Shown one piece after another: positions 1-35,293 of a stretch of 35,293 nt of DNA. The stretch lies in the NCBI GenBank assembly GCA_027623355.1, contig JAQBWB010000002.1, positions 1 to 35,293 on the forward strand, written 5' to 3'. The translations under genes were made by a program, and so were the position numbers. Source of the stretch: Nanobdellota archaeon (GTDB lineage: Archaea > Nanobdellota > Nanobdellia > Woesearchaeales > JACPBV01). The notes under the pieces are model-generated. The model was not told where the DNA came from, made no database searches, and was given only the letters and a program-made list of their open reading frames with translations. Positions within the stretch are counted from its first letter, which is position 1; the number at the start of each line of letters is the position of its first letter.

Positions 1-77
1 CAAGGAATAATCTCAGGAATTTCGAAGATGGTTGCTTTAGCAGCCTACGAACGCTAGTGACTATGCTATCCACATAC
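1..77 (+). mobile_element. MITE-like element, copy A (3' part only, cut by window start)
   Basis: Positions 1-77 match the 3' module of the complete copies at 19990-20187 and 32482-32700 (caaggaataatctcaggaatttcgaagatggttgctttagcagcctacgaacgctagtgactatgctat.cacatac). One mismatch lies in the terminal repeat, at position 70. Confidence 0.6.
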
Positions 78-1708: not shown

Positions 1709-2349
1709 AAGATGTTCTTATCTGCCTACCTACAAGAAACGAAGCAGCCAATATCCAATACATGATCGACAAGTTAAAAATTCTAAACTATCCTATTATC
1801 GTTGCCGATGCAAATTCTAGAGATGGAACTGTAGAGATAGCCAAAAAGAACAATATCGAAGTCTATCAAAGAGAGGGGCATGGAAAAGCCTACGGTGTAA
1901 GAAAAGCACTACAAGTAGCAAAAGAAAAGAAAGCGAAAATTCTAGTCTTCATCGACTGCGATCGTACCTATCCAACACAAGCAATTCCCAAAATGGTTGA
2001 ATTAATGCAACACAACGACACAGTCATCTGCTACCGAAGCCAAAAACACATTAAACCTCTACACAGAATAGGAAACAACATCCATACCATTGCAATCAAT
2101 CTTTTATTCGGCTCCAACCTAAAAGATATCAATTCCGGATTACGAGCAATACGTGTAGATAAATACAATAAACTCAGATCAGTTGGTTTCGATATCGAGG
2201 CAGAACTCACAATCATTGCAATCCGCAACCACCTCCGTATTAAACAATTCCTCATCCGCTACGAAGAACGCACCGGAGACTCCAAAATAAGACTTCAAGA
2301 CGGCATCACCATCATGCTGAGAATTCTCAAAGAACGTTTACGATTCTAG
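1705..2349 (+). CDS. Family 2 glycosyltransferase (soluble, DPM1-like)
   Basis: I start it at ATG 1705, which overlaps the upstream stop as ATGA. The sequence MKDVLICLPTRNEAANI...IVADANSRDGT...FIDCDRTYP is a GT-A fold with a DxD motif. Confidence 0.7.
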   Translation: MKDVLICLPTRNEAANIQYMIDKLKILNYPIIVADANSRDGTVEIAKKNNIEVYQREGHGKAYGVRKALQVAKEKKAKILVFIDCDRTYPTQAIPKMVELMQHNDTVICYRSQKHIKPLHRIGNNIHTIAINLLFGSNLKDINSGLRAIRVDKYNKLRSVGFDIEAELTIIAIRNHLRIKQFLIRYEERTGDSKIRLQDGITIMLRILKERLRF

Positions 2350-2384
2350 TAAAACTTAAGAACTCATAAGCAATCATAAGCAAC

Positions 2385-3830
2385 ATGCTCTTCAACTCAC
2401 TCCACTTCCTAATCTTCTTCCCCATAGTGCTCTTCATCTATTTTTCCATCGCTCACAAATACCGTTGGATTGTCCTTTTACTCAGCAGTTATTATTTCTA
2501 CATGTCCTGGAAGCCAGAATACATCATCCTCATCATGATTTCAACGATTATAGATTATATTGCAGCAATCCAAATAGAAAAATCCGAATCAAAAGCAAGA
2601 AAAAAGAATTTCCTCATATTAAGTCTAGCAACAAATCTAGGATTACTCTTCGCTTTCAAATATTTCAACTTCTTTAGCGAATCCACTCGCGCCATCTTAC
2701 AACACTTCGCTATTCCATTAGATCCCATGACACTCAAAGTCTTATTACCAGTAGGAATCAGCTTCTACACCTTCCAAACTCTAAGCTACACCATAGATGT
2801 GTACCAAGGAAAAATAAAACCACAAAAACATCTAGGAATCTTCGCAGTATACATAGCATTCTTCCCCCAACTAGTAGCAGGACCAATAGAACGAGCAAAA
2901 AACCTCCTGCCACAATTCCTAGAAAAACATAATTTTGATTACAAAAGAGCCACAAACGGACTAAAACTCATGCTCTGGGGCTTCTTCAAGAAAATCGTCA
3001 TTGCAGATCGTTTAGCAGTACTTGTAAACACCATCTACAACGACCCCACAGGATTCACCGGACTACCTCTAATCATAGCAACCATCTTCTTCGCCTTCCA
3101 AATCTATTGTGATTTCTCCGGATACTCCGATATCGCAATAGGTTCAGCCCAAATGATGGGGTTCACCCTAATGGACAACTTCAAACGTCCCTATTTCGCA
3201 AGATCCGTCTCCGAATTCTGGAAACGATGGCACATTTCATTATCCACATGGTTTAGAGACTATGTCTACATCCCATTAGGGGGAAATAAAGTATCAATTC
3301 CAGGGTGGCACCTCAATATCGCAATTGTTTTCTTATTATCAGGATTATGGCACGGCGCATCATGGACCTTCGTGGTATGGGGAGCCATCCATGGAGCACT
3401 CTTAATCATTGAACGCCTAACAAAACCGCTAAAACAAGCATTTTTCAACATAACCAGGATAACAAGACTTCCAAAATTAACCCACCTAATAGAAATGGTA
3501 TTCACTTTCTCAGTTGTAACGATAGCCTGGATCTTTTTTAGAGCAAATTCGATTGCAGACGCCTGGTACATCCTAACACATCTCTTCACCAACCTTACAT
3601 TTGCACAACTCAACATCCAGATGGGCGCAAAGTGGATATCCCTGATTGTAGCCGTAGGAGTCATTGCATTCATGGAGTTCGTCCACCTTATACAAGAACA
3701 CAAAACCATCCGACAGTTCATGTCCAACAAACCAGTAGTACTACGCTGGATAGTATATCTAGCAATCATCCTAGCAATAATTATATTCGGAGTCTTCAAC
3801 AACACACCATTCATCTATTTCCAATTTTAA
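2385..3830 (+). CDS. MBOAT family membrane O-acyltransferase (AlgI/DltB-like)
   Basis: 481-aa polytopic protein. It has the MBOAT signature FWKRWHISLSTWFRDYVYIPLGG and a later LSGLWHGASW motif with histidine. Confidence 0.85.
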   Translation: MLFNSLHFLIFFPIVLFIYFSIAHKYRWIVLLLSSYYFYMSWKPEYIILIMISTIIDYIAAIQIEKSESKARKKNFLILSLATNLGLLFAFKYFNFFSESTRAILQHFAIPLDPMTLKVLLPVGISFYTFQTLSYTIDVYQGKIKPQKHLGIFAVYIAFFPQLVAGPIERAKNLLPQFLEKHNFDYKRATNGLKLMLWGFFKKIVIADRLAVLVNTIYNDPTGFTGLPLIIATIFFAFQIYCDFSGYSDIAIGSAQMMGFTLMDNFKRPYFARSVSEFWKRWHISLSTWFRDYVYIPLGGNKVSIPGWHLNIAIVFLLSGLWHGASWTFVVWGAIHGALLIIERLTKPLKQAFFNITRITRLPKLTHLIEMVFTFSVVTIAWIFFRANSIADAWYILTHLFTNLTFAQLNIQMGAKWISLIVAVGVIAFMEFVHLIQEHKTIRQFMSNKPVVLRWIVYLAIILAIIIFGVFNNTPFIYFQF

Positions 3831-3831
3831 A

Positions 3832-4797
3832 ATGAAAGAACACAAAATAAAATTCGTAAAAAGAGGCACCCTTTTCCTACTCATAGCCCTAATCACAATC
3901 CTTCTAATTAATCAAGCCTATATCACTAAAATCCTACCAAAGAAGCAAGTCTTCAGAAAAGAGACCGAGTGGCAAACATACAAGTCTTCAATTCCAAACG
4001 CAACACTCCAATACGCCCTCTTCGGTGATTCGCATACACTCTATGCATCAAATCCAAATTTCATAAACAACTCCTATAACTTCGCGTCATCTGCAGAAGG
4101 TTACATCGAAACCTACTACAAACTAAGAAAGATAATAGAAATCGACAACATCGAAATAAAAACAATCATCCTAGAAGTAGACCCCCACACCTTTTCCGAA
4201 AAAACAAGAGCAAACGAAGGACTATTCCATGAATTAAGATATTACACCCAATTCATTCCTCTAAAAGAAATAGCAAAGCACAAAGAACAGAGCATCATCT
4301 CATTAGCAATAGAAAACCATTTACCCATTATCGGAAAAGGGGATGAAATACTTTCACAAGTAGTTTCAAGCGAGATAGATAAAGGATGGATTAGTAGCAA
4401 AAAAGTGTTTGAAGACAAAGACAAACAAAAAATAGCAAGAACCCAATACAAAAAACACTTCACTGCTTCCCCAAACCTAATACAAGAGAAAACATTCACT
4501 TACTTCAAAGAACTCCTCAAATTCGCAAAAGAAAACGAAATCAACATCGTTCTAGTCACCTACCCCCTCACTAAAGAATACCAAAAAGAGATAGAAAACC
4601 TACAATTAGATACTTACTACAACACCATTCTCAAAGAAGCAAATACTATCAGCACATCATACCATATTCTAGAATATCAAGCCCTATTCCTAGAACATCC
4701 AGAATACTTTGGAGATGCAGACCATCTTAACCATCAAGGCGCAGAACAATTTTCAAAAAAACTACAAGAAGACTTAATCACGCTTATATTTAAATGA
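3832..4797 (+). CDS. Membrane-anchored SGNH/GDSL-like partner of the MBOAT (DltD/AlgJ/AlgX-like)
   Basis: It starts 1 nt after the MBOAT stop and has a single N-terminal TM segment. FGDSHT is an SGNH block I-like motif and DADHLNHQGA near the C-terminus is a DxxH block V-like motif. Confidence 0.5.
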   Translation: MKEHKIKFVKRGTLFLLIALITILLINQAYITKILPKKQVFRKETEWQTYKSSIPNATLQYALFGDSHTLYASNPNFINNSYNFASSAEGYIETYYKLRKIIEIDNIEIKTIILEVDPHTFSEKTRANEGLFHELRYYTQFIPLKEIAKHKEQSIISLAIENHLPIIGKGDEILSQVVSSEIDKGWISSKKVFEDKDKQKIARTQYKKHFTASPNLIQEKTFTYFKELLKFAKENEINIVLVTYPLTKEYQKEIENLQLDTYYNTILKEANTISTSYHILEYQALFLEHPEYFGDADHLNHQGAEQFSKKLQEDLITLIFK

Positions 4798-15249: not shown

Positions 15250-15272
15250 AGTCGTCTAGGGTTAAAATTCGC

Positions 15273-15280
15273 TATATAAA
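15273..15280 (-). promoter_or_regulatory. TATA box for the GT2-led operon
   Basis: The minus strand reads tttatata, 24 nt upstream of ATG 15249. Confidence 0.5.
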
Positions 15281-15428
15281 CATTTGTTTTCCACCAGTAT
15301 GTTCCACTGGGGGGATGCAAATGTGCTCAATCACCATCAAAGTGGTTATCGACACATTTGTTTTCCACCAGTATGTTCCACTGGGGGGATGCAAATGTGC
15401 TCAATCACCATCAAAGTGGTTATCGACA
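15281..15428. repeat. Perfect tandem duplication, 2 x 74 bp
   Basis: 15281-15354 and 15355-15428 are identical (catttgttttccaccagtatgttccactggggggatgcaaatgtgctcaatcaccatcaaagtggttatcgaca). The pair fills the gap between the hldC stop and the GT2 TATA box. Confidence 0.95.
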
Positions 15429-19113: not shown

Positions 19114-19983
19114 ATGAACGTCATAACTCAAACCCTTCTGCCAACCTTCCTCATCATTCTAGTAGGATATCTCATAGGAAAGAAAAGAAAAGTAGACTTA
19201 GTACCCTTTACCGACCTCATCATATACATCACTGGACCCGCATTAATAATCTTCTCAATAGCAAAATCAACCCTAGACCTAAAAAACGCAGCCAACATAT
19301 CTATTTCCTCATTTTTAGTCATCCTAGGAATGGGAACCATCACCGCAATAATACTAAAACTAACCAAATCAAAAAAGCGTGGACTATACCTTCCAATAAC
19401 CGTAGGCAACACCGGTTTTCTAGGATTACCCCTTGCCTTATTCGCTTTCGGAAACGAAGGGCTAGCACGCGCCATAGTATACGACATCACCAATGCAATA
19501 CTAATCTTCACCGTTGGAATATACCTAATAAGTAATCACTCCGACTTCAAAGAAGTGTTCAAAATTCCATTAATTTACGCAGCAATCCTAGGAGTAATCC
19601 TCAACCTCACAAAAACCACCATCCCCTCAACAATAGCAACCCCTCTAGAGATGATTGGTCTAACAACCATACCGCTAGCCCTAATGATCCTCGGCTACAA
19701 TCTCACAAAAATAAAAATAACCTCCCTAAAAACAACAGTAGGTGCATCTCTACTAAGAATCCTAGGCGGATTCACCCTAGCCTTCATCATCACCTCCTTT
19801 TTAGGCCTACAAGGAATAGACCGCGGCATCGTCCTCATCCTAGCGGCACAACCCTCATCCATGATGTCAATGATTCTCTGCAAAAAATACGATCAAGATG
19901 CCGAGCTAGCAGCCTCAATAGTGTTTGTAAGTACGCTCATAAGCATCATCACAATACCTCTTATTCTCACCTTCGTACAATAA
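19114..19983 (+). CDS. AEC (auxin efflux carrier / Mem_trans) family transporter
   Basis: 289-aa polytopic protein. The N-terminus MNVITQTLLPTFLIILVGYLIGKK and the motif GNTGFLGLPLALFAFG are typical of the AEC family. Confidence 0.7.
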   Translation: MNVITQTLLPTFLIILVGYLIGKKRKVDLVPFTDLIIYITGPALIIFSIAKSTLDLKNAANISISSFLVILGMGTITAIILKLTKSKKRGLYLPITVGNTGFLGLPLALFAFGNEGLARAIVYDITNAILIFTVGIYLISNHSDFKEVFKIPLIYAAILGVILNLTKTTIPSTIATPLEMIGLTTIPLALMILGYNLTKIKITSLKTTVGASLLRILGGFTLAFIITSFLGLQGIDRGIVLILAAQPSSMMSMILCKKYDQDAELAASIVFVSTLISIITIPLILTFVQ

Positions 19984-19989
19984 CCAGGG

Positions 19990-20187
19990 GTATGTGCATA
20001 GCATCATCAAGTCGAAATATTTGAAATACAAAATTAGACTAACCAGAGGGTTGGCTCCTGTTGCGAGAAGCTCGCTTCTTGCTCGCTTCAAACATTGGAG
20101 AATGTCAGCCTCCATAACTATATGTAAGATTTCGAAGATGGTTGCTTTAGCAGCCTACGAACGCTAGTGACTATGCTATGCACATAC
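19990..20187 (+). mobile_element. MITE-like element, copy B (198 bp, variant 5' module)
   Basis: It starts with gtatgtgcatagc and ends with gctatgcacatac. The 3' 60 nt are identical to copy E. The 5' subterminal part (catcatcaagtcgaaat) resembles copy D. The flanks differ, so there is no target-site duplication. Confidence 0.7.
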
Positions 20188-20232
20188 CATTTTTCACAAC
20201 TTATTTAAACCAAATTCAAGTTCTAAAACTTT

Positions 20233-21129
20233 ATGGAAACCACAGATAAGATTTGGATGGATGGAGAGTTAGTAAATTGGCAAGATGCCAAGATTCATGT
20301 TATCAGTCACGCACTCCATTACGGCAGCTCAGTATTCGAAGGAATAAGATGTTATAAAACCGAAAAAGGCACAGCCATTTTTAGACTAAAAGAACATGTA
20401 GAACGTCTCTTCTTATCAGCAGAAACCCTAGCAATGAAGGTACCCTTCTCAAAAGAGCAAATAGAGCAAGCAATCATAGAAACCGTCAAGACAAACAAAC
20501 TAGAAACAGGATACATCCGACCACTAATCTTCTACGGCTATGGCAAAATGGGGCTAGACCCCGTTGGAGCGCCCGTAAATGTAACGATAGCAGTTTGGCC
20601 CTGGGGATCATACCTGGGTGACGAAGCCGTCAAATTAAAAACGGCAGAAACCATCAGACTCCACCCAAAATCATTCAAACCACAAGCAAAAGTAGGCGGA
20701 TTCTATGTTAATTCAATCTATGCCCACCAAGAAGCAAAGAAAGCAGGCTTTAACGAAGCGCTAATGCTTGACCACGAAGGAAACATAGCAGAAGGACCTG
20801 GCGAGAATATTTTCATGATGAAAGACGGAAAAATAATAACTGCAAAAGCAGGATCCATCCTACCTGGAATAACAAGAGACACAATCCTAACAATAGCAAA
20901 AGACAACAACATCGAAATAGAAGAACGCACCGTAACACCAGAAGAACTAAAACAGGCAGACGAAGTATTCATGGTGGGTACCGCAGCCGAGGTAACATTA
21001 GTAGACCAAATAGATGATACTGAAATAAAAAACAACCATACAGAAGAAAAAGCGAAATTCTTCAGAACCACCTACCTTGATATTGTACAAGGAAAGCAAG
21101 ATAAGTACAAAGACTGGCTCACATTCTAA
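20233..21129 (+). CDS. ilvE: Branched-chain amino acid aminotransferase (class IV PLP)
   Basis: HYGSSVFEGIRCY..GTAIFRLKEHVERL, YIRPLIFYG and EGPGENIF match the IlvE pattern. 298 aa. Confidence 0.85.
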   Translation: METTDKIWMDGELVNWQDAKIHVISHALHYGSSVFEGIRCYKTEKGTAIFRLKEHVERLFLSAETLAMKVPFSKEQIEQAIIETVKTNKLETGYIRPLIFYGYGKMGLDPVGAPVNVTIAVWPWGSYLGDEAVKLKTAETIRLHPKSFKPQAKVGGFYVNSIYAHQEAKKAGFNEALMLDHEGNIAEGPGENIFMMKDGKIITAKAGSILPGITRDTILTIAKDNNIEIEERTVTPEELKQADEVFMVGTAAEVTLVDQIDDTEIKNNHTEEKAKFFRTTYLDIVQGKQDKYKDWLTF

Positions 21130-21167
21130 CCAATATATTTAAGTACTCTTTTACCTAAATTATTCAT

Positions 21168-21536
21168 ATGAACAAAGCACTTCTAGTTTTGAACCTAGTA
21201 GCAGCTCTAGTAACAATCAATATTCTCATAGCAGAACCCTCTGTAATCGGACATGCCGTAGCAGAAGATGATGTATTCACGGTAAGCAAACCCGTAAAGA
21301 TTGCAGTAGTAGTAATCATTCTAACGCTGATAGCAGATGTAGCCGTCTATGTTGCAGAACTAAAGAAAAAAGAACTCAAGGAATTAGGTTCCTCAATTAA
21401 AAATAAAGTAGAAAAGAATGTAAAAATAAACTTCAAAAGCGAGAAATCAAAGAAACCGGAAAAAATACTCCGTTTACAAACCAAAAAGAAAAAAGCAAAG
21501 AAGAAAATAATGCCTAAAAAATCAACAAAAAAATAA
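21168..21536 (+). CDS. Small membrane protein with lysine-rich C-terminal tail (hypothetical)
   Basis: 122 aa with two hydrophobic segments, followed by KKKELKELGSSIKNK...KKKKAKKKIMPKKSTKK. No family recognised. Confidence 0.4.
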   Translation: MNKALLVLNLVAALVTINILIAEPSVIGHAVAEDDVFTVSKPVKIAVVVIILTLIADVAVYVAELKKKELKELGSSIKNKVEKNVKINFKSEKSKKPEKILRLQTKKKKAKKKIMPKKSTKK

Positions 21537-21540
21537 AGCC

Positions 21541-21550
21541 AAAAAAGAAA
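21541..21550 (-). terminator. Oligo-T tract after the SRP RNA
   Basis: The minus strand reads tttctttttt immediately after the 3' closing helix of the RNA. Oligo-T termination is the archaeal type. Confidence 0.5.
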
Positions 21551-21826
21551 GTGGGAAGGCGCACCAAAAAATGAGCACAAACCTACACAGTTGGCTAACC
21601 TCAAAAGTTCCTCGACTCCGCTACCCGCAGGACATCAACACAATAATTTAAGGCTGCTTCATTCCTGATCTCACCTGGTTCACTAAAGCATTAATCCCTA
21701 TGGACAGAGTTTCAACGTTACAGTTGAGACCACCTGCATAAGCAATGCCGCTTCTCCGGCTTCGACTCCCCTAAAGCGCGTTCAAGGTAACAGAAGAGCG
21801 CTACACTTCCAGCCTAGCCTTCCCAT
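21551..21826 (-). ncRNA. Signal recognition particle RNA (7S / long archaeal-type SRP RNA)
   Basis: The minus strand contains CCAGGUGAGAUCAGGAAUGAAGCAGCC, which matches the helix 8 motif (E. coli 4.5S CCAGGUCAGGUCCGGAAGGAAGCAGCC) and has a GGAA tetraloop. The 5' GGGAAGGC pairs with the 3' GCCUUCCC. GCUAGGCUGG is Alu-domain-like. Length is about 276 nt, with no coding potential. Confidence 0.85.
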
Positions 21827-21846
21827 GAACCAAAAACCAACCTTCT

Positions 21847-21854
21847 TTTTTAAA
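21847..21854 (-). promoter_or_regulatory. TATA box for the SRP RNA
   Basis: The minus strand reads tttaaaaa, ending about 21 nt upstream of the predicted RNA 5' end. Confidence 0.5.
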
Positions 21855-21868
21855 GCTTTATGATTAAA

Positions 21869-22002
21869 GTATGTGCATAGCATCCTAAGGTCGAAATTCT
21901 TTCACCTTTCACAAGCAGGTGCGTTGCGAGGGGTCGACCCCTCCGGGGACGCAGCACCTTCAAGGAATAATCTCAGGAATTTCGAAGAGGCTATGCACAT
22001 AC
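21869..22002 (+). mobile_element. MITE-like element, copy C (134 bp, shortest complete copy) with 8-bp target-site duplication
   Basis: The perfect 13-bp terminal inverted repeats are gtatgtgcatagc and gctatgcacatac. The subterminal stem is tcgaaattc with gaatttcga. The internal palindrome is gaggggtcgacccctc. tgattaaa flanks it at 21861-21868 and 22003-22010. Confidence 0.8.
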
Positions 22003-22021
22003 TGATTAAAGCAACTTGTAA

Positions 22022-25000
22022 TCACTTCTTTCTCTTCAAGTGCCTTCTAACACACATCCGAGTGTAGTGATGCTTTAGATGCACATGTGGATGCAGCACC
22101 TGACGCCACATCAACTTCCAATAGTGCCACGGCTTCTCCCATAGAGTATTTGGAGAGCTCTCCATAAAGTGGCCTACATACAACACATGCATCCGATCAT
22201 GTGCCTTTCGAGCAGCATGCACATTACCTTTCTTCAAATGCCCACGAATAACCTTTCGTAGCATCTTCATCTTAAACAACGGATGATCAAATTGCATAAC
22301 CCGTTTGCGATGCCTCTTAACCCGTTTCCACAGGTAGCGTTTTAGCAAGAAATTATGCTTGCCAGCATCAATCACCAAATAATGTCTGTTCAATTCCCGA
22401 TACAATGCATGTGCCTCCTCAACACGCTTTTTTCGTGTATAATGATTCAACGACTTGTGCACCTTCCAGAACCGTGCAAATGATTTGTTAGTATGCACTA
22501 GAGTGAAGAACACAGCCTTGTTCAACAAGAAGGAAGCTAATATCAGTAAGAAGATTCTAATAATTTGCTTGGGAGTGATTGTTTTGAACGAAAATCCTTT
22601 GAAACAATCAATGGGACAGTTCAGTTCATCCTCTCCCTGTCCACAGACACCGTTACCACATTTACATCCCGTCGCATCAAAGGTAGCATCATCCGAAATC
22701 CGCTGCCCAACCAAGATGTATCTGTCTTTACTAGAGCAAGCATCAATATGTAAGTCATAATACAACGTGTTTCCAACAGCAGTTTCAACTCCCGCAGCTA
22801 TAATTTCCCGAGCTATAATCTTCTCGATAAGTTTTCTTGAAACCTCTTGATCAATCAAACCAGTGTGCGTCACATTAATGTCCCAATAATTAGTACATCT
22901 ATTGTTAATGTATTCATCCCCGATACGCTGAGCGCTTTTAATAGTGACCAAACCATCGTGAGTCTCATTAGTAGCATCAATTTCAAGCAAGTTACCAAAC
23001 TGCTGCGTATTCGTTCCAGCAATAACAAAATAATCAACTCCAGGTAGTCGTGGAGTAACAAGGCCTTCTTTCAACAGATCAATGAGCTGGTTATTAACAT
23101 TAAACAGGTTGTTGTACTTACTTACTTTGTTAACCAAGAACTTATACACCTTCAGATAATTTTCAAGGAACGCTGCACCTTCATTAGGAACACCCACCAA
23201 GATAACTTTTTTCACTTTAGGGATAAAGGTATATTTCTGTGTTACATTATTAGCAACAAACGCATCATACAACGTTTTCTGAGCAACAATCCCCCCTAGA
23301 CTGTGAGCAGCAATGTACAAATTATCAAATTCTTCAACGTTCAACTCAATACTATCCATCAAATCTTGAGTAATATCATCTATTGTACGCGTACTACTAT
23401 ATCCATACGTCCACGTCTGGAACGGCTGCTCAGTAAGCTCGATATCAGCAATAATATCCTCAAACGTATCCGGACTACTAGTAAATCCGTGGACTAATAA
23501 TACGGCATCTCGCGAAGTACCATTATACACTTTCTCGAATGAAGAGTTCACACAGAATTCACAGATAGTTCCCATAATCGTGAATAACCCTACGCTTTCA
23601 TTGTCCAGGTACTGTTCAATCGATTCAATCTCTGCCGTCACCGTACCCGCATCCTTATCAATCACCCCACCTAATGGATTCCATTCATCATTCTGACGAG
23701 CAAAAATTTGCAATCCATCAATATCAATATTCTTAGTTTGATCCTCCAAATAAGCCAATGTCAATGTACTCGTTCCCGTATCCTCAATCCGCAAGTGCGA
23801 CGGGTTACCAATAATTTTCAGGAACTCATTGACTGCCTCTTCTACTGTTTCATTACGTGCAACGAATTCAACACCATCAACCGTAACATTACCTTCAGAA
23901 AGATTAACATCTGTCGTATCTGCTTCAAGTTCCGTCCGTTTGAATTTGCCTGTATCCGAATCAAAGCACTCCAAGCGGGAAGTCACATTGATAAGAGTCG
24001 GAACACACACATCTCCAGTACATCTGAGCATCGTCAAGTTCACATACTGCTCAGGGATACTTACCGTAAAGTCAATCTCATGCCCAGCACACTGGATTCG
24101 GAACGGATCCAATACTACTTGGAATCCTTCAGGAACATCCGTTTCCTCAACTGTCGACTGATGAATACTAACATCTCCCCCCTTCCCGCCTGAAACCCGT
24201 CTACAAGGAAGTGTTGTAGCACCTAACTGGAGACCATTTTTAGATCCAGGAGATGCCAAAGAAACCGATGCAGCAGCAGCCGCAGGTGCAGCCGCAGGTG
24301 CAGCTGCAGCCGGAGCCGGAGGTGCAGGCGAATAGCTCACAGGACACGTGCCACAATCTCCCATACAGTTACTACACGTTTCAGCCCCGTTACAAGTGCC
24401 ATCTCCACACCAATCACAATCAGCCTTACAGCTAGTAGCCTCACCCCCACCACAATACCCATCGCCACAGTAAGAGGAAGCAGCGACAGTAACCCTAACC
24501 TGTTCTGAGAAATAATACTCAGAATCATTGAAACCGATAGTTACGATAGACGAACCAGTATAATCCAGTGCAGGAGTAAATGTAGCAATCGAGGTTGTTT
24601 GATTAATCACCACATTAACTGTACTCGAAGTATTTCCAGTAACATTAAACGACATAGGGTCCCCATCTTGATCCGCATAATATTGCAACAACGTAATCGA
24701 TTTAGGCGTATTCTGCCCGACACTTAGCGTAAGCAAGCTATTATTGATGAACGGAGGACTATTCAAAATCGTCAATGTCTCACTAAACACGGGCGTCCCA
24801 TTATCAAACGTATCATCTGCCGTTGCCGATACATTCACGACATCCCCCTTAGAAAAGTTACTAGCACTAAACGTACCACTTATGGCATAGCTGCCTTGAG
24901 TTAAAGAAACAACCGTCTCATTTCTAGCAGGTGTACCATTCACATACCATCTAAAAGTAATACTTCCGCCATCCCCATCATCATCAGAATAGTTAGCCTG

Positions 25001-28000
25001 CACCCACAAATCATCCACAGATCGTACATTAGAATCATTCAACGTAACGTTATCCGCTACTGGAGGACTATTCACAATAGTAATCTCTGCACTGGCTACA
25101 GCAGGAGAGGTCCCTGCCACAGTATCCTTAGCAGTAGCTGTAACATATACAGTATTACCTCGAGAATAAAGCACACCAGTAAAGTTACCTACCGCGGTAC
25201 CTCCCGTGAGAATGGTACTAGCAGTCTTACTAGAGCTAAAGATACTATTTACATACAATGCAAATGTAACATTAGAAGTATCCCCATCCGGATCCGTAAC
25301 GGTAACATTCACACCGACAATATCTTTAGCCTTCACCTGCGTGTTGTTCAATAAAGGAACACCAACAGAAGGATACCCATTAGCGATCGTCGTAACATCG
25401 CTCCAATAAGTATCAGAAATATCGGTGCTATCATTCGCAACAATCGTCACATTAATCTCATCAGTTCGATTATAAAAACTGAGGCTAAGGTTCGATGACA
25501 CAAAGGTACCATTTGTAAGATTAAAAATAGTTTCATTAAAGATAGCAGTAGCATTCAGGTACCACGTAAATGTCAAACTCCCATTATCTCCATCGTTATC
25601 GATAAAGGTAGCATTAATGGAGGCATTTTCAGAGGAATTGAAAAACGGATTAACAAAAGTTGCAAAGTTAAAGGAAATATTTTGAACAAGGGGGGGACCA
25701 TTCGCAACCGTCAACGTAAGACTGGTAATCGTAGTATTATCTTCAGTATCATTTGCAACCACGGTCAAATTAATCTTATCATTCCTGTTAAAGTTAGCAC
25801 TATCAAGAGTAGAGAACACAGTAGCTCCACTAGCACCCAAAGCAATGAATTTATTAGATTGAACAACAACATTATTTACCCTCCAATATAGGTTAGCGGT
25901 TCCAGTATCTCCATCATAATCCGAATAATTAGCCTCCCCATACAAATCATCATTCGAATTAGGAGCACTATTATTAATTCCAGGTCTGGAAACATTTGAG
26001 GGCGTATTCGTAACCGTAGCATTCGTCCCCTTAATAGCCGCAACATTGTTAGTAGCATCCGTGGCATTAGCATAGGAAACAATCACTGTATTTTTCATGT
26101 AATTGTTATAACTAAAGTTCACCACAACAACCCCTCCGGATACAACATGATACACCGTCCTCCTATCCTCAATTCTTCCACTCACACTAAGATATATCGT
26201 AACATTCCCATTATCTCCATCAATATCGGTATAGGTAGTATTGGCAGTTACATTCGCACGCGAAATAGTTGTAGAAGTATTAATAATCGGCGCAGTAACC
26301 ACTGGAGCACCATTCGCAACCGTTAAACTCTGACTATTCACAACTGTTGAATTATCACTACTATCATTAGCATATACCGAGAAATTAATGATTAATCCTT
26401 TTGTAAGATTAGTACGCGACAGGTTCGATCGAGCAATAGTACTACTCAACACCGGCTGAATCGTTTCATTGAAAATTGCAGTACCATTCAAGAACCACGT
26501 AAAGTGCACACTACCATTATCTCCATTCGCATCTGTAAACGTTACATTCCCATACAAATCATCATGCGTTGTAATGGTCAGGGTATTATTCAAGGTAGCA
26601 TTAGCAAGCGTAGGAGCAATATTGCTTCCAGAGGCGACACAACTACTTCCGTCACAAGTACCATAATCAGGATCAAAGTTTCCATTTCTAAGAGTAGCAT
26701 CACAAAAATCACCATTACTACAAGAGGTGCTACAAGCATCTGCATAGATAGAACCTGCAGTCCCATTACACAAATAGCCTGAGGTCCAACATACGCTAGA
26801 TCCATCACACTGCCCATCCTGCAAGAAACCACTACCATTGATACTACTATCGCACGCAAATCCTCCTTCAGTTCCACTACAGGCGTTGAAATAATTCGCA
26901 GAGGAAATATCACTCACCGCGCACGCCTCCAATTTACAACTCATAGTTATGATGCCGGCAGATGAGCAAGCACTTGAAACACACACCCCAGTCCCATTCG
27001 GCTGATACCCTGAAGCAGAGCTGTCTGCACAAATCATCCCCTCACTCCCAGCAGTACAACTAGAATTCTCATTTCCTGAATGGAAATTAACTGCAACCCC
27101 TCCCGTCAAATTATCACCATATTCGCCTGATGAAGTACCAACCGAACAGGTAGCAGACGTATAACCATTCCGAGCACAAATGCCTTTTAACGTAGAGTCA
27201 GAATAATAATCACAACTTGCACCCAAGTGATCAATACATTCAGTTACATTATGACATCTATCAGCAGTACTAATCTGACTGTCCCCACTTAAATCAATGC
27301 ACGTATTAGTAGTATTACCAAACGACACATTAACGTAACATCCCTCCCCCCAATTCTCAGCCACACTCAACCGACAAGCAATCCCGCTAGCACTATTCTG
27401 TGCCATCGAGGTAATATTACCAAACGTAATGTTCTGATAGTGTCTACCTTCTGTAATAACATCAACCGTATGCCTACCAGTTGTATTACACGAATAATCC
27501 AAGAACGAATATCCTGCAACAGCATATACTCTGTCAACCGATTGAGCCAACGTAATCAAGCTACCATTCTCCAACAACAGATAACTATTCGCAGAAGAAA
27601 AATTATTGATCCGATCAAATAGCACATCCTCTCCACACCGCAATGTGTTCAACTTCAGATCATCCTGTGTATACGGATTATCTTCAGTCATCTCTCGATA
27701 CCGAGTTCCATTTACCGTAAAGATCGTCAAATTAGCATTACCTGAAGTCTCAAACTTAACCGTCCACTCCCCGCCCAATGCAGGATAACTCTGCACATTC
27801 AAAATTGTTAAACTAATCTCATACGTCTGATTCGAAAGGTGAGGTACAACCCATTCAATCTCCTCTAGCAATCCATTATGATCACGATCAACACCCACAA
27901 AGTCAACCTCCACTCGACCATCCGGAGTAATCCAATGTAAGATAACATTTGCCGCCTCAATCTCTCTCGGCAATGAGGAATAAGCAACAATATCTTCGTA

Positions 28001-29992
28001 GTGCACATCCGAACTAATCACAACCTCTTTAGTAGTGTTCGTCAACATTCTCTCCGATGCCCGAGGTGCCTCCGTGTAATATTCAACAGCTACCTCGCTA
28101 GCAATCTCTCCAATAATCACCTCAGAAACACCCGCATCTGAAGAGGTATCCGCAATAGCAAATCCAGTTACCGTAACTGATTTCAACCAAGCAAAGAATC
28201 TTGGCAACAACCCATCGCCAACCGTGCTAGCAACTACATAACCCGTCAACACATTTTTCTCATTTCTAAGAGCAACCAATTCCCGATTAATGTCTCCCAC
28301 AGAAGAAATCGCAGTAGGACTATCTCGAACGAGTGCAAGTTTCTCATTCGCTAATCTTTCCTCAATTTTTTCAATATGATCAATCCGCTTCTCAGCCCGG
28401 AACAAGCTCAAGTTCTTGAGCCTTCCCGCATCCCTAACAACCACTTTCTCCAAGCTCCTATTATCAGAAAGATCAATCACCGAGATATTCAAAATAGCCG
28501 AACTAATATTCACGCTCAGGTTAATTACATCCTCAGACGAATTAACAAAGGTGACCCACCGTACAGGCTCATTCAACCGCACCTTGGGCTTTTCAGTAAC
28601 GACAACCACATCAACATCATCCATGCTAGCTGGACGCGAAACTACATCTATCCACATCACAGGCGAGGTTGCCGAGTAATGCCCATCTGTTGCCGTAAAG
28701 TACAAGCCACCACGTCCAATCTCCTCAGTTGTAATCGTAACAATACTCCCATCTAACACAACATCAACAATCCCCTCAACAAAGTAGGAGTAATTCAATG
28801 CATCTCTATCCTCATCCACAAAATAATCATTAAGATCAATGTAGTGTACATCTCCGGCGTACCACGTTCTATTAGAAAAGTTTTGAACCAATACTGGAGG
28901 ATACAAAGAGATATTGAATTCCTGTAAAACGGTGTAGTGAACCGAATCCACATCCAAGGTACCAGCATCAACCTCAACCCTAAAGGTAATCAAAGAAGCA
29001 TTAACATTCAATAGACAACTTTCAACACAACGTCCCTCAAAGACTATTCTTCGCTCAATAAATTCAGCAGTCGAATACTCCACGTCAGAATACCGAATAT
29101 CACTAGTAACCGCCTCCAGATCAAGCGCATAATGTACCAACCGACTTGAAATAGTATTCATAGTCTCCATTGCATACCGATCTGCCGTTAGATAGAATGG
29201 TGCATCCCACGATCCAACAGCCTCCAATCCAACAAATCCACAACAATCAACAGCTCCCTGACAAGCTACCGGTTTGCTATTAACACTCCAAATGCTACAT
29301 AATCTCTCTGTATCCACCACACTATCGGTTTCAACACTATACGTAAAATATTCATCCGTGTGCGCAACCAACCTATCGGGAGCGATAAGACGTATATCGA
29401 GAGTAACATTCAAAGCAACCTCCGCAACAGTGCTTTCATTTTCAACTTCACCATCATCCACAACTAATCCCGTAATCGAGCTTAATCCCGCATAAGAGCT
29501 ATCATACACCAAGTACGATTCATTACCTACGTCCGCATATACTCTAGCTACTCCATCCTTACTCAAACTCCCACTAATACTCAAACTACTCAAACTGCCT
29601 GGATGCAATAACTCAAATGTATAACTAGCATTCCCACTAAACCGCTCACCAACCGTTTCCTCAAACCCAACCTGTTCACTAATAGTTACAAATCCAACAA
29701 ACGGCTTGAAGAATGCAAACATCGACAGCGCAACAATTACGAGCAGAAACGCAACAACCTGTGCAACCTCTTTCTTCGCAGCAATCTTAGCCCGATGACT
29801 AAACAATTTTTTCCATTCAGCTCGAGAACGATCCGACACACTCTCCCGCATCAAGCTTCGATAGTTATGAGGAGTAATCTCCCTATTTCGATATTCTTTC
29901 TCAATCGAAGAAATATCCTTAGCTATCGCCCTTTCGAGATCAGCACGGCTACAGGAATCTACTCCTCTTTCAGTAAATCTCCTATCTGACAT
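22022..29992 (-). CDS. Giant (2656 aa) two-TM-anchored, sequon-rich surface protein with PKD-like repeats, Cys-rich modules and an alpha/beta-hydrolase domain
   Basis: One uninterrupted ORF. The N-terminal 76 aa are polar, followed by a TM segment (aa 77-95). Seven modules carry DxDGD motifs (TDANGDNG, TDIDGDNG, SDYDGDTG, IDNDGDNG, TDPDGDTS, SDDDGDGG, ADQDGDPM). There are two Cys-rich regions and a Pro/Ala linker. The hydrolase motifs are LLVHGF...AAHSLGG...THDG. A second TM segment and a 157-aa His/Lys/Arg-rich tail follow. Confidence 0.85.
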   Translation of the reverse strand: MSDRRFTERGVDSCSRADLERAIAKDISSIEKEYRNREITPHNYRSLMRESVSDRSRAEWKKLFSHRAKIAAKKEVAQVVAFLLVIVALSMFAFFKPFVGFVTISEQVGFEETVGERFSGNASYTFELLHPGSLSSLSISGSLSKDGVARVYADVGNESYLVYDSSYAGLSSITGLVVDDGEVENESTVAEVALNVTLDIRLIAPDRLVAHTDEYFTYSVETDSVVDTERLCSIWSVNSKPVACQGAVDCCGFVGLEAVGSWDAPFYLTADRYAMETMNTISSRLVHYALDLEAVTSDIRYSDVEYSTAEFIERRIVFEGRCVESCLLNVNASLITFRVEVDAGTLDVDSVHYTVLQEFNISLYPPVLVQNFSNRTWYAGDVHYIDLNDYFVDEDRDALNYSYFVEGIVDVVLDGSIVTITTEEIGRGGLYFTATDGHYSATSPVMWIDVVSRPASMDDVDVVVVTEKPKVRLNEPVRWVTFVNSSEDVINLSVNISSAILNISVIDLSDNRSLEKVVVRDAGRLKNLSLFRAEKRIDHIEKIEERLANEKLALVRDSPTAISSVGDINRELVALRNEKNVLTGYVVASTVGDGLLPRFFAWLKSVTVTGFAIADTSSDAGVSEVIIGEIASEVAVEYYTEAPRASERMLTNTTKEVVISSDVHYEDIVAYSSLPREIEAANVILHWITPDGRVEVDFVGVDRDHNGLLEEIEWVVPHLSNQTYEISLTILNVQSYPALGGEWTVKFETSGNANLTIFTVNGTRYREMTEDNPYTQDDLKLNTLRCGEDVLFDRINNFSSANSYLLLENGSLITLAQSVDRVYAVAGYSFLDYSCNTTGRHTVDVITEGRHYQNITFGNITSMAQNSASGIACRLSVAENWGEGCYVNVSFGNTTNTCIDLSGDSQISTADRCHNVTECIDHLGASCDYYSDSTLKGICARNGYTSATCSVGTSSGEYGDNLTGGVAVNFHSGNENSSCTAGSEGMICADSSASGYQPNGTGVCVSSACSSAGIITMSCKLEACAVSDISSANYFNACSGTEGGFACDSSINGSGFLQDGQCDGSSVCWTSGYLCNGTAGSIYADACSTSCSNGDFCDATLRNGNFDPDYGTCDGSSCVASGSNIAPTLANATLNNTLTITTHDDLYGNVTFTDANGDNGSVHFTWFLNGTAIFNETIQPVLSSTIARSNLSRTNLTKGLIINFSVYANDSSDNSTVVNSQSLTVANGAPVVTAPIINTSTTISRANVTANTTYTDIDGDNGNVTIYLSVSGRIEDRRTVYHVVSGGVVVVNFSYNNYMKNTVIVSYANATDATNNVAAIKGTNATVTNTPSNVSRPGINNSAPNSNDDLYGEANYSDYDGDTGTANLYWRVNNVVVQSNKFIALGASGATVFSTLDSANFNRNDKINLTVVANDTEDNTTITSLTLTVANGPPLVQNISFNFATFVNPFFNSSENASINATFIDNDGDNGSLTFTWYLNATAIFNETIFNLTNGTFVSSNLSLSFYNRTDEINVTIVANDSTDISDTYWSDVTTIANGYPSVGVPLLNNTQVKAKDIVGVNVTVTDPDGDTSNVTFALYVNSIFSSSKTASTILTGGTAVGNFTGVLYSRGNTVYVTATAKDTVAGTSPAVASAEITIVNSPPVADNVTLNDSNVRSVDDLWVQANYSDDDGDGGSITFRWYVNGTPARNETVVSLTQGSYAISGTFSASNFSKGDVVNVSATADDTFDNGTPVFSETLTILNSPPFINNSLLTLSVGQNTPKSITLLQYYADQDGDPMSFNVTGNTSSTVNVVINQTTSIATFTPALDYTGSSIVTIGFNDSEYYFSEQVRVTVAASSYCGDGYCGGGEATSCKADCDWCGDGTCNGAETCSNCMGDCGTCPVSYSPAPPAPAAAAPAAAPAAAAASVSLASPGSKNGLQLGATTLPCRRVSGGKGGDVSIHQSTVEETDVPEGFQVVLDPFRIQCAGHEIDFTVSIPEQYVNLTMLRCTGDVCVPTLINVTSRLECFDSDTGKFKRTELEADTTDVNLSEGNVTVDGVEFVARNETVEEAVNEFLKIIGNPSHLRIEDTGTSTLTLAYLEDQTKNIDIDGLQIFARQNDEWNPLGGVIDKDAGTVTAEIESIEQYLDNESVGLFTIMGTICEFCVNSSFEKVYNGTSRDAVLLVHGFTSSPDTFEDIIADIELTEQPFQTWTYGYSSTRTIDDITQDLMDSIELNVEEFDNLYIAAHSLGGIVAQKTLYDAFVANNVTQKYTFIPKVKKVILVGVPNEGAAFLENYLKVYKFLVNKVSKYNNLFNVNNQLIDLLKEGLVTPRLPGVDYFVIAGTNTQQFGNLLEIDATNETHDGLVTIKSAQRIGDEYINNRCTNYWDINVTHTGLIDQEVSRKLIEKIIAREIIAAGVETAVGNTLYYDLHIDACSSKDRYILVGQRISDDATFDATGCKCGNGVCGQGEDELNCPIDCFKGFSFKTITPKQIIRIFLLILASFLLNKAVFFTLVHTNKSFARFWKVHKSLNHYTRKKRVEEAHALYRELNRHYLVIDAGKHNFLLKRYLWKRVKRHRKRVMQFDHPLFKMKMLRKVIRGHLKKGNVHAARKAHDRMHVLYVGHFMESSPNTLWEKPWHYWKLMWRQVLHPHVHLKHHYTRMCVRRHLKRKK

Positions 29993-30278
29993 GCTTCACC
30001 TTTTTCGTAGCCTTACTATATGCAGTCCACACCGTTTTGTAATCTCGATGCAATACTGCTGCAATCTCCTTGAACGACAATCCCTGCTCATCCTTGAGAT
30101 ACAAACAAACAGCCTCCTGCATACCTAATTCAGGTCTAAACGCAGAAACAGGAACGCTTTTTTCATTCGAACCAACCAACTCAGAAAATAATTCGGGATG
30201 TTCAATCAACTGCTCCTTGAGCTTACCCAAAAGAACATCAATAGCCGCAATCTGACGCTCCTTCAACTTACCGACCAT
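29982..30278 (-). CDS. Small HTH protein (sigma-70 region 4 / LuxR-type-like), paralog 2
   Basis: 98 aa. LGMQEAVCLYLKDEQGLSFKEIAAVLHRDYKTVWTAYSKATKKV fits the pattern of a helix-turn-helix protein. It overlaps the giant gene start by 11 nt. Confidence 0.6.
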   Translation of the reverse strand: MVGKLKERQIAAIDVLLGKLKEQLIEHPELFSELVGSNEKSVPVSAFRPELGMQEAVCLYLKDEQGLSFKEIAAVLHRDYKTVWTAYSKATKKVKHVR

Positions 30279-30528
30279 GCTTCACCTTAGCATTAAAGTT
30301 AGCACTCCACACTGTCTTGTAATCTCGATGTAACAATGCAGCAATCTCCTTGAACGACTTCCCTTTCTTCACTAAATCACTACACACCGCCTCCTGCATA
30401 CCTAATTCCGCAGAAAACACAGATAACGGAATTTCAGACGGAACAGAGTCAGTTTCATCAATCAAAATCTTTCGTAACCTAGAACAAAGTACCTCAATAG
30501 CCTTTTTTTTCGGTGTAACCGAATCCAC
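30268..30528 (-). CDS. Small HTH protein (sigma-70 region 4 / LuxR-type-like), paralog 1
   Basis: 86 aa with a GTG start. LGMQEAVCSDLVKKGKSFKEIAALLHRDYKTVWSANFNAKV is close to paralog 2. It overlaps paralog 2 by 11 nt through the same AAGGTGAAGCATG junction. Confidence 0.55.
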   Translation of the reverse strand: MDSVTPKKKAIEVLCSRLRKILIDETDSVPSEIPLSVFSAELGMQEAVCSDLVKKGKSFKEIAALLHRDYKTVWSANFNAKVKHGR

Positions 30529-30654: not shown

Positions 30655-30692
30655 AAACTAAGAGAAATTGCAAAAATAAGGAAAAAAGACAC

Positions 30693-30815
30693 GTATTAAG
30701 CATCGTCAAGTCGAAATCGCTATGAAACGATTACTGGCTCGTCGTGGGGGTTACACCATACGAGTCACAGAGCCTTCAAAGTCTAAAGTAGGATTTCGAA
30801 GGTGATAATACACAC
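30693..30815 (+). mobile_element. MITE-like element, copy D (diverged relative)
   Basis: gtattaagcatcgtcaagtcgaaatc ... ccttcaaagtctaaagtaggatttcgaaggtgataatac is collinear with copies B and C. The ends are eroded (gtatta and taatac). The stems are kept but with different bases. Confidence 0.5.
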
Positions 30816-30825
30816 GAAAAAAGAA

Positions 30826-32467: not shown

Positions 32468-32481
32468 TCTTAGCATTATTC

Positions 32482-32700
32482 GTATGTGCATAGCGTCCTA
32501 AGGTCGAAATTCCTTGATGCCTCAGAAGCGCGGGTGCGTTGCGAGGGGTTGTTGCCGAACCAAGTGAGCGCAACTAAGAAAATGTTTCATTTTCCGTTGC
32601 TCCCTACGGGAACGCAGCACCTTCAAGGGATAATCTCAGGAATTTCGAAGATGGTTGCTTTAGCAGCCTACGAACGCTAGTGACTATGCTATGCACATAC
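32482..32700 (+). mobile_element. MITE-like element, copy E (219 bp, longest) with 8-bp target-site duplication
   Basis: It has the same 13-bp terminal inverted repeats. cattattc flanks it at 32474-32481 and 32701-32708. Compared with copy C it carries an extra internal hairpin block and the 35-nt 3' module atggttgctttagcagcctacgaacgctagtgact. Confidence 0.8.
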
Positions 32701-32702
32701 CA

Positions 32703-33278
32703 TTATTCTTCAACAATAATTTCGCCACGCATAGATTCTCTATCAGTAAATATCAAATCAGTATACACAAATGTTCCAGGTTTCTCGAAAGTATGGCTAA
32801 ATTGCTCCCCTCTAAAAAACCGTTCACTCCTAAACTCTTTGTTATAAGAAATAAGCAGATGAAATACCCCTCCAATCTTAAACTGATCATTATTCTTCCA
32901 GATAATAGTATCCCCCACCTTAATCGTAAGTTTTGAAGGCTTTAAGCGCAATGCCTCTATATTAACAATGTACGTCTCGCCAGTCGGTTTGTCTTCAGTA
33001 GCATTAACAACCACTTCATCAGCCTCATTCTCTACCTCAACTACAGTATCTTCTACTACAGTATCTTCTACTACAGTATCTTCTACTACAGTATCTTCTA
33101 CTACAGTATCTTCTACTACAGAATCACTAGAATCCTCAACAACTACTTCATCAACCACATCAGAAACAACACTCTCAGTAGATCCACTCTTAATAGAAAC
33201 ATCAGTAGGATTCTGACAACCCAGAACTACAAAAACTAGAACAATAAGTGCTATGGAAGGACTCCAGCGCATCTTCAT
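32703..33278 (-). CDS. Putative lipoprotein with VEDTV tandem repeats and a cupredoxin-like C-terminal domain lacking Cu ligands
   Basis: The signal peptide ends in the lipobox-like VLGC. An acidic Val/Asp/Glu linker follows. The C-terminus LTIKVGDTIIWKNND...FSHTFEKPGTFVYTD...MRGEIIV follows the cupredoxin pattern, but the Cys and the second His positions are not conserved. Confidence 0.5.
   Translation of the reverse strand: MKMRWSPSIALIVLVFVVLGCQNPTDVSIKSGSTESVVSDVVDEVVVEDSSDSVVEDTVVEDTVVEDTVVEDTVVEDTVVEVENEADEVVVNATEDKPTGETYIVNIEALRLKPSKLTIKVGDTIIWKNNDQFKIGGVFHLLISYNKEFRSERFFRGEQFSHTFEKPGTFVYTDLIFTDRESMRGEIIVEE
33041..33120. repeat. 15-bp tandem repeat x5.3 inside the lipoprotein gene
   Basis: ctacagtatcttcta occurs as five perfect copies at 33041-33115, followed by a partial copy. 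On the minus strand it encodes (VEDTV)5. Confidence 0.95.
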
Positions 33279-35226: not shown

Positions 35227-35293
35227 GTATGTGCATAGCATCCTAAGGTCGAAATTCTTTCACCTTTCACAAGCAGGTGCGTTGCGAGGGGTC
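35227..35293 (+). mobile_element. MITE-like element, copy F (5' part only, cut by window end)
   Basis: 67 nt identical to the first 67 nt of copy C. It begins 2 nt after the XPD stop codon. Confidence 0.65.

Follow-up and report, generated by a model that had tools for sequence, protein, structure and literature searches.

A self-complementary repeat of DPANN archaea as a probable, recently amplified miniature inverted-repeat transposon

We analyzed a 35,293-bp contig of a Nanobdellota archaeon (JAQBWB010000002.1, assembly GCA_027623355.1), referred to below in its full length as the window, and in it a family of short repeats that is represented by six copies or fragments (A to F), all of them intergenic and all on the + strand. 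With a probability that we put at roughly 0.85, these repeats are a non-autonomous DNA transposon, a MITE (miniature inverted-repeat transposable element), of the Woesearchaeota/Nanoarchaeota (DPANN) that has recently been amplified. The properties expected of a MITE that we found are a short, non-coding unit, terminal inverted repeats, a target-site duplication of constant 8-bp length, insertion at many unrelated loci, and empty sites; the expected property that we did not find is an autonomous element with the same ends. The minimal element is 126-134 bp long, copies with inserted modules reach up to 331 bp, and no protein-family match overlaps any of the copies. The family had been proposed in an earlier note made from the letters of the window, and the positions and ends of copy C, its 8-bp duplication and the CATTATTC flanks of copy E given there were all recovered in our analysis.

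Mobility of the element is indicated by its target-site duplications and by the state of orthologous sites in relatives. The 8-mers that flank 30 complete copies match each other at 8/8 positions in 10 copies, at 7/8 in 5 and at 6/8 in 3, and two further copies have a 7-bp repeat directly touching both ends. In a control in which the right 8-mer was shifted by 8 nt, the match never exceeded 5/8. Duplication of the flanking 8-mers at copies elsewhere, which the earlier note had made a touchstone of its proposal, was thus observed at 7/8 or better in 15/30 copies.

The second touchstone, the existence of relatives with empty sites, was provided by a sister lineage that is syntenic with the window over its whole length, with protein identities of 86% for the aminotransferase, 91% for XPD and 91% for the epimerase. 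Here, the spacers orthologous to sites A, B, D, E and F, that is, to five of the six window sites, are short and contain no element. At site B, there is no element between the orthologous Mem_trans and aminotransferase genes (contigs L044 and L046, and likewise L055 of a third lineage), site D is free of the element in L044/L046, and the spacer between the XPD and methyltransferase genes at site F is 46 nt long and element-free in L048/L049. Site E is an exemplary case: the relative reads ...CTTAG TATTATTC CTCAAC..., with a single TATTATTC, where the window reads ...CTTAG CATTATTC (219 bp) CATTATTC TTCAAC.... As the duplications are present elsewhere and the empty sites exist, neither of these two grounds on which the earlier note would have given up its proposal applies, and the MITE reading stands. 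That five of the six window sites have no element in the sister lineage means that the copies are recent and, in that lineage, dispensable.

The sister lineage contains two copies in about 62 kb, both of another subfamily, compared with 6 copies in 35 kb in the window, which implies that the canonical subfamily (beginning with GTATGTGCATAGC) expanded in the window lineage after the split. Copies C and F agree in every one of their first 67 nt (21869-21935 vs 35227-35293), which fits recent activity. In the source metagenome (X1), words from unique flanks have a depth of 7-8 and the summed depth of the element ends is 2000-4700, with more than 100 contigs that have different flanks, so that the ends are several hundred times as deep as the flanks; this depth is no per-genome count, as other populations may contribute, and it fits the one copy per 6 kb found locally.

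The copies in the window are listed in Table 1. An unfiltered scan of the whole window with a covariance model of the family gave no matches beyond the known copies (+ vs - strand scores of 121/51, 46/9, 36/6 and 30/6 bits), in agreement with the six intergenic, + strand copies or fragments originally proposed. Copy C scores 121 bits (E-value 4e-29), and its fold has a z-score of -6.2 relative to dinucleotide shuffles. Copy D (46.5 bits on the + strand, 9.4 on the - strand) is a real copy, but its limits had been misplaced at 30693-30815: it spans 30689-30815, has diverged terminal repeats, and is flanked by its own perfect duplication GAAAAAAG. Likewise, terminal repeats of 13 bp are perfect in copies C and E, as claimed, but most members of the family have terminal inverted repeats of 16 bp (GTATGTGCATAGCATC / GATGCTATGCACATAC), and over this length copy C has one mismatch. 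The terminal 13-mer is absent elsewhere in the window. The right duplication of copy E includes the stop codon (TTA on the + strand, 32703-32705) of the minus-strand gene 32703-33278.

Table 1 Copies of the repeat family in the window and the adjoining RNA gene.
Feature	Position	Strand	Description
Copy A	1-77	+	3' part of a long-variant element, cut by the window start; ends in GCTATCCACATAC
Copy A, right flank			TAAACAGAAAAGT...; orthologous to an element-free intergenic spacer in the sister lineage (empty site)
Copy B	19990-20187	+	198-bp long variant; extra hairpin modules in the apical loop and beside the 3' terminal repeat
Copy B, flanks			No recognisable target duplication (8-mers match at 1/8)
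Copy C	21869-22002	+	Minimal 134-bp element; ends GTATGTGCATAGC and GCTATGCACATAC
Copy C, terminal repeats	21869-21881 and 21990-22002		
Copy C, subterminal box	21891-21899 and 21977-21985		TCGAAATTC pairs with GAATTTCGA
Copy C, core stem	21918-21922 and 21954-21958; 21925-21928 and 21950-21953		GGTGC with GCACC; TGCG with CGCA
Copy C, apical hairpin	21938-21941 and 21945-21948		CCCC, loop TCC, GGGG
Copy C, target-site duplication	21861-21868 and 22003-22010		8 bp, TGATTAAA
Copy D	30689-30815	+	127 bp, diverged subfamily; ends ACACGTATTAAGCATC ... GGTGATAATACACAC
Copy D, conserved parts			Box GTCGAAAT / ATTTCGAAG and core stem kept
Copy D, target-site duplication	30681-30688 and 30816-30823		Perfect 8 bp, GAAAAAAG
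Copy E	32482-32700	+	219-bp long variant; same ends as copy C
Copy E, extra modules	~32548-32604 (apical loop)		Insertion of ~55-60 nt in the apical loop; 3' module GGTTGCTTTAGCAGCCTACGAACGCTAGTGACTAT
Copy E, target-site duplication	32474-32481 and 32701-32708		8 bp, CATTATTC
Copy F	35227-35293	+	5' part, cut by the window end; begins 2 nt past the XPD helicase stop codon
Archaeal SRP RNA gene	21553-21824	-	Rfam RF01857, 111.7 bits; context, not part of the element
Likely TATA box of the SRP RNA gene	21844-21853	read on -	TTTTTTAAAG; promoter assigned by inspection

The family extends beyond the window. An exact scan with the end pattern GCATAGCNTCNTNANGTCGAAAT, applied to one genome per species and then to metagenome contigs, retrieved 21 loci from the genomes, of which 17 are true copies, located in at least nine other DPANN bins (Woesearchaeota, Nanoarchaeota and unclassified archaea) from several sites, and 4 are chance bacterial matches; the metagenome contigs yielded 17 further copies. 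With the end pattern and the covariance model together, more than 40 copies with differing flanks were found in other contigs. Many of the end-pattern matches sit at contig ends, and copies in this position are typical of repeats that break assemblies. More than 20 DNA runs, whose sources are groundwater, drinking water, freshwater, sediment, soil and peat, contain words of the canonical copy. No match to the family was obtained from plasmid and phage collections, and viral contigs gave five chance matches to the end pattern only.

We found no known family that accounts for the repeat. The earlier note had allowed that it might be a known structured RNA; no Rfam family matches the element, either at gathering thresholds across the whole window, where only the signal recognition particle (SRP) RNA reaches one, or at E<=10 for 19900-22100, the region with copies B and C. 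A full-text literature search for both end sequences found none. Literature searches on MITEs of Woesearchaeota or DPANN yielded only a general census. This census of MITEs over 183,232 genomes (PMC11602168) names a 'Woesearchaea' genome among the MITE-densest archaeal genomes, with 105 per Mb; the density in the window is about 160 per Mb, or approximately one copy per 6 kb. The text of the census gives no description of the present family, which appears to be undescribed so far.

That the repeats could be an assembly artefact or chance similarity is brought to mind by the two window ends, both of which fall within copies (A and F), the assembler having broken at the repeat. However, many independent assemblies have copies with unique flanks in the interior of long contigs, the model E-values reach 1e-29 and lower, and the empty sites are precise, so that we consider this explanation refuted. 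The possibility that A and F are the halves of one copy on a circular molecule was also rejected, as each of them is flanked by sequence orthologous to a different spacer in the sister lineage. A protein identical to the product of 20233-21129 is recorded on a 36,669-bp contig, and this other assembly may extend through one of the terminal copies.

At two loci outside the window (L012 5988-6253 and L032 1467-1735), elements of different subfamilies are paired in opposite orientation, 3-5 nt apart, and the pairs are bordered by further inverted repeats resembling remnants of other copies. This arrangement suggests a tendency of copies to insert within or next to other copies.

The anatomy of the element was delineated from an alignment of 19 minimal copies and from 30 model-fitted copies. 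The left end comprises, in this order, the 16-bp terminal repeat, a conserved 6-nt spacer N-T-N-A-R-G and a 9-bp box TCGAAAT(C/T)C, and the right end comprises the inverted box, a single A and the inverted terminal repeat. The 6-nt spacer of the left end has only a single A as its counterpart in the right end; hence the ends are non-equivalent, and they differ functionally. The box and its inverted counterpart form a 9-bp subterminal helix, TCGAAAT(C/T)C / G(G/A)ATTTCGA. The interior is composed of variable linkers, a covarying core stem whose sequence is wholly different between subfamilies, a G-run, and a 4-bp apical hairpin, CYCC-UAC-GGRG, which is kept and has a loop of the U-N-C type (UAC, UCC or UUC). 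Long copies (B, E, L002, L005, L013, L033, L038 and those of the sister lineage) have small hairpin modules in the apical loop or beside the right terminal repeat, and some of these modules are common to distant copies.

The whole element folds into one long hairpin, and the pairing covaries. In the MAFFT alignment of 19 copies, 96.3% of the cells are paired and 10/34 pairs show two-sided change. The corresponding values in the model-fitted alignment of 30 copies, which is biased to the structure it was fitted to, are 96.1% and 23/34, so that the 'partly covarying core' of the earlier note turned out to be an understatement. For each alignment, 0/500 shuffles equalled the observed values, and slid controls reached 30-50% paired. 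Compensatory change occurs in all four helices, including the terminal one, in which 97.5% of the cells are paired over 30 copies. The self-complementary architecture is conserved. Most likely, the hairpin serves the element and not the host, and would do so through transposase binding, synapsis of a short element, or tolerance of read-through.

Three other structural assignments were tried and rejected. The perfect palindrome GAGGGGTCGACCCCTC that had been singled out in copy C is peculiar to this copy, with 70.8% of cells paired, no better than shuffled or slid controls, and is not a conserved helix; the conserved apical hairpin is CCCC-TCC-GGGG (21938-21948), in which the C-run pairs with the downstream G-run. 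A K-turn reading of the conserved loops, made by inspection, does not fit the sequence. A UNCG-tetraloop register is disfavoured by both covariation and slid controls, which point to a 4-bp stem with a 3-nt loop.

Several observations weigh against the MITE reading, and we consider them here together with the alternatives on which they bear. The first concerns the ends. Copies with different outer terminal repeats were found with the covariance model at L011 3730-3859, L012 5988-6118 and 6122-6253, L021 4785-4914 and L032 1467-1598, as well as in copy D of the window and in the sister-lineage copies. These outer repeats have changed compensatorily at both ends, with the inner AGCRTC, the box and the core architecture kept, and one variant-end copy has a perfect 8-bp duplication, GATAATTG. 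This is the reverse of the usual MITE pattern of fixed ends and a free interior, and a hint that base pairing as such may be of importance. For insertion sequences (ISs) following their own transposases, it is normal that relatives differ in their matching ends; it is less usual for MITEs to share an interior that covaries.

Such pairing would be accounted for if the elements were, or had become, functional structured RNAs, either a mobile small-RNA gene or a cis-acting module (5' leader, stabiliser, terminator or insulator), a role that may coexist with an origin as a MITE and that we regard as doubtful. The terminal 'inverted repeat' would then be the closing helix of the RNA, in line with the covariation in all four helices, the terminal one included, with the ends of the subfamilies, which are quite different and yet self-complementary around a conserved core, and with the conserved apical 4-bp hairpin and its U-N-C type loop. 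However, subfamily-specific matching ends are likewise to be expected where every subfamily follows a transposase of its own, the folding energies and z-scores are the same on both strands, and the element has no match in Rfam, even at E<=10. The direction of mismatches is ambiguous. On the + strand, mismatches in the model helices comprise about 22 G-T vs 6 A-C, two doubtful pairs being left out, which would suit an RNA and is a further point against a plain MITE; the unbiased count of single mismatches, from folds without G-U, gives 5 G-T vs 5 A-C, and the two counts conflict.

The genomic context of the copies bears on the same question. Several copies lie directly upstream of a Shine-Dalgarno sequence and ATG and would be transcribed as leaders, and site C, beside the SRP RNA promoter, is occupied in two lineages. 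Transcription of copies in a leader position is passive, and the orientation of copies relative to neighbouring genes is mixed. On reading the consensus of the element, without a formal scan, we found no run of at least 5 T and no TATA-like promoter. The RNA runs with words in common with 21500-22100 covered only the SRP RNA of related organisms and not the element, and none of the RNA runs contained copy E or the canonical copy. Presence is not conserved at 5/6 orthologous sites, the five that are empty in the sister lineage, and the remaining one, site C, is occupied in two lineages by seemingly separate insertions. The suggestion in the earlier note that the elements have been recruited as terminators, insulators or small-RNA genes is therefore unsupported, given sites that are mostly empty in the sister lineage, strands that fold equally, and no oligo-T tract or TATA-like element.

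Site C is itself a second point that a MITE does not readily explain. It lies between the stop codon of a gene for a 2656-aa protein and the SRP RNA promoter, and is occupied both in the window and in the sister lineage, at the same alignment column, by elements of different subfamilies. The flanking duplications are TGATTAAA, present twice, in the window, and GAATTGCA and GAATTACA in the sister lineage; a third lineage (L054/L055; 75% protein identity) has a single TGATTGCT and no element. The two repeats of a pair are more alike within each lineage than they are to their orthologues, which favours two separate insertions into one 8-bp register over an old insertion that was later overwritten by gene conversion. 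This is one site, and it provides no evidence for a host function either way.

The third point is orientation. All six copies of the window are on one strand, and the two copies of the sister lineage are also on the + strand. The five window insertions with empty orthologous sites are certainly independent and recent, and the two-sided probability of a single orientation is about 0.03 for six events and about 0.02-0.03 for six or seven. The single orientation noted earlier is therefore true of the window but suggestive at best, and is no rule of the family, as both strands bear copies within a few kb in contigs of other genomes (L011, L012, L021 and L032). The window is also strongly asymmetric in composition. 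Its overall GC skew is -0.25 and its AT skew +0.18, GC skew at third codon positions of the coding strand amounts to -0.55 in + genes and to +0.49 in - genes, and about 70% of the coding sequence is on the G/T-rich minus strand. This asymmetry is extreme, independent of gene direction, and also present in the sister lineage (L044, L046, L048 and L051); so strong a skew, unusual in an archaeon, suggests that there is one replichore only and that it is strongly polarised. In the other genomes, the skew is weak and the orientation of the element is unrelated to local GC skew. The one-strand pattern may be chance, or it may reflect a link to replication that is specific to the window lineage.

These features recall the palindromic elements derived from IS200/IS605 and the repetitive extragenic palindromic (REP) elements, which move as folded single strands at the replication fork with the help of tyrosine transposases. 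For movement of this kind one could cite the six window copies and the two sister-lineage copies on the same strand, the extreme third-codon skew, and a whole element that forms one hairpin with co-evolving arms. We nevertheless consider it highly improbable, since elements of the IS200/IS605 and REP types have neither a target duplication nor terminal inverted repeats, and 8-bp duplications are the rule here; moreover, there is no conserved 4-5-nt target motif beside one end, both strands are occupied within a few kb at the four loci named above, and the orientation bias amounts only to the probabilities already given.

Target choice is without polarity. Copies land in short A/T-rich spacers at gene ends, and comparison of the flanks of 30 copies revealed no conserved target motif abutting one end. 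TATA-like A/T 7-mers at 11-17 nt from the ends occur at the left end in 13 and at the right end in 10 of 29 copies. We had considered insertion targeted to promoters with a fixed polarity, based on a TATA-like motif 13-21 nt to the left, and rejected it because the motifs are about equally frequent at both ends; the data fit a symmetric preference for A/T-rich spacers. The empty spacers are 21-46 nt long at four of five sites and about 200 nt long at site D, and it is because spacers are so short in this compact genome that copies lie within a few nt of stop codons.

Taken together, the compensatory changes in the outer repeats, the stronger conservation of the box and core than of the ends, the double occupation of site C and the eight copies on one strand could mean that the functional form of the element is a folded single strand, DNA or RNA, and not a pair of protein-binding ends. 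We think this unlikely. If true, it would point either to hairpin-dependent transposition in which 8-bp duplications are nevertheless produced or to the presence in DPANN archaea of a mobile gene for a non-coding RNA. Under the MITE reading, the co-evolving ends, the twice-hit site and the strand-polarised copies under extreme skew are unexplained details.

The last point against that reading is the lack of an autonomous partner. The absence of a transposase gene from the window, stated in the earlier note, was upheld, as no sizeable open reading frame (ORF) of the window contains a transposase domain. No autonomous element with matching ends was found in the genome, metagenome or viral collections, although a partner with other outer ends would escape the pattern, and the end-pattern matches in genomes and metagenomes are all MITE-sized or truncated. 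Genome bins tend to lose insertion sequences, and, to our knowledge, many accepted MITE families are also without a known partner. We propose that a transposase supplied in trans cuts the target with an 8-bp stagger; it would most likely be of the DDE type, a class assignment drawn solely from the 8-bp duplication and the inverted repeats.

Target duplications of 8 bp are also made by insertion-sequence families such as IS6, ISL3, IS256, IS66/ISBst12 and IS1595, and by the hAT-derived MITEs of eukaryotes. They share the 8-bp duplication and short terminal inverted repeats with the present element, a likeness that we take only as a lead, as we do the ends of the IS66 family, which presumably begin with GTA, like those of the element. 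A transposase linked to the ends of the element was not found for any of these families.

One candidate for the partner, a locus with 1722 bp between the ends (L031), was rejected because the transposase there is that of an IS4-like insertion, which is unrelated and has ends of its own, CAATGTCATTAAGTTA. At this locus (about 430-2150, with the element on its - strand), the 1583-bp IS4-like IS, which encodes a 429-aa DDE_Tnp_1 transposase, divides a MITE copy in two at the apical loop. The locus represents either one split copy or a chimera of two copies, and the two MITE halves are from different subfamilies. An IS630-like element adjoins, and the same junction is seen in L037.

Among known systems, the closest are other prokaryotic MITEs, such as SM1-SM4 of Sulfolobus solfataricus. 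The present element is similar to these in its size (about 130 bp), non-coding nature, inverted repeats, duplication of fixed length, many intergenic copies and transposase acting in trans; it differs in that its outer repeats vary by subfamily, its internal box and covarying core are conserved, and its partner IS was not found. The Correia elements of Neisseria and the ERIC/IRU elements of enterobacteria are imperfect palindromes of about 100-150 bp that form long hairpins when transcribed, are located in intergenic or intra-operon positions, and have length variants with internal insertions; Correia elements duplicate TA; RNase III processes the hairpins of their RNA, and some of them have promoters. 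The present element resembles them as a short, hairpin-forming palindrome in intergenic spacers with length variants, but it is archaeal and not bacterial and, in contrast to Correia elements, makes an 8-bp and not a TA duplication. REP/BIME and IS200/IS605-derived elements (for REP and tyrosine transposases, see PMC2817692) are also high-copy extragenic hairpins. Insertion of the IS200/IS605 group is polarised relative to replication. REP/BIME and IS200/IS605-derived elements have no terminal inverted repeats flanked by duplications and insert beside a short specific motif; in both respects the present element is the opposite.

The family matters for several reasons. Knowledge of DPANN archaea, whose genomes are very small and compact, comes almost exclusively from metagenomes. 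Extrapolation from the density in the window and the depth in X1, to which other populations may contribute, suggests that the repeat could make up several per cent of a genome of about 1 Mb, and, as it breaks assemblies, it is a practical obstacle to closing such genomes. The copies are a marker of recent, lineage-specific evolution, five of the six insertions postdating a split at about 90% protein identity. They provide a clean set of filled and empty sites, and the conserved inner box could serve as bait for the transposase. Finally, the family is a suitable test case for the question of why a covarying hairpin is retained in some MITEs.

The window derives from the chromosome of a DPANN (Woesearchaeota/Nanoarchaeota) archaeon. 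Its gene content includes the archaeal SRP RNA, a protein-glycosylation cluster, an XPD helicase and a 2656-aa repetitive protein, and the best named homologues of three window proteins are from Woesearchaeota/Nanoarchaeota. By inspection, copy C is located 7 nt upstream of the likely TATA box of the SRP RNA gene; close variants of this RNA are seen in marine and hydrothermal-vent metatranscriptomes. The 2656-aa ORF (22022-29992, - strand) has no Pfam match and contains internal repeats of about 306 nt at 24746-26568. Its size (2643-2660 aa) and position are kept in the sister lineage, and it probably encodes a giant surface protein. It is preceded by two small paralogous helix-turn-helix genes (29982-30278 and 30268-30528).

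Two tandem repeats in the window are distinct from the MITE family. At 15265-15412, a 74-bp unit occurs twice in tandem, with 92% likeness, and each unit contains a hairpin ACATTTG ... CCAGT..ACTGG ... CAAATGT. The host spacer is only 38 nt long in the sister lineage, and the depth of the repeat in X1 is about 3-4 times that of its flank, as for a low-copy or locally expanded repeat unrelated to the MITE. At 33022-33140, about 7 copies of a 15-bp tandem repeat, TCTACTACAGTATCT, lie within the minus-strand ORF 32703-33278 and would be translated into a short peptide repeat. A small two-gene cassette occupies 113-680, upstream of the epimerase gene. Its first ORF (88 aa) is intact; the second, 98 aa long in the sister lineage, appears disrupted in the window, where a 31-aa ORF is left at 583-678.

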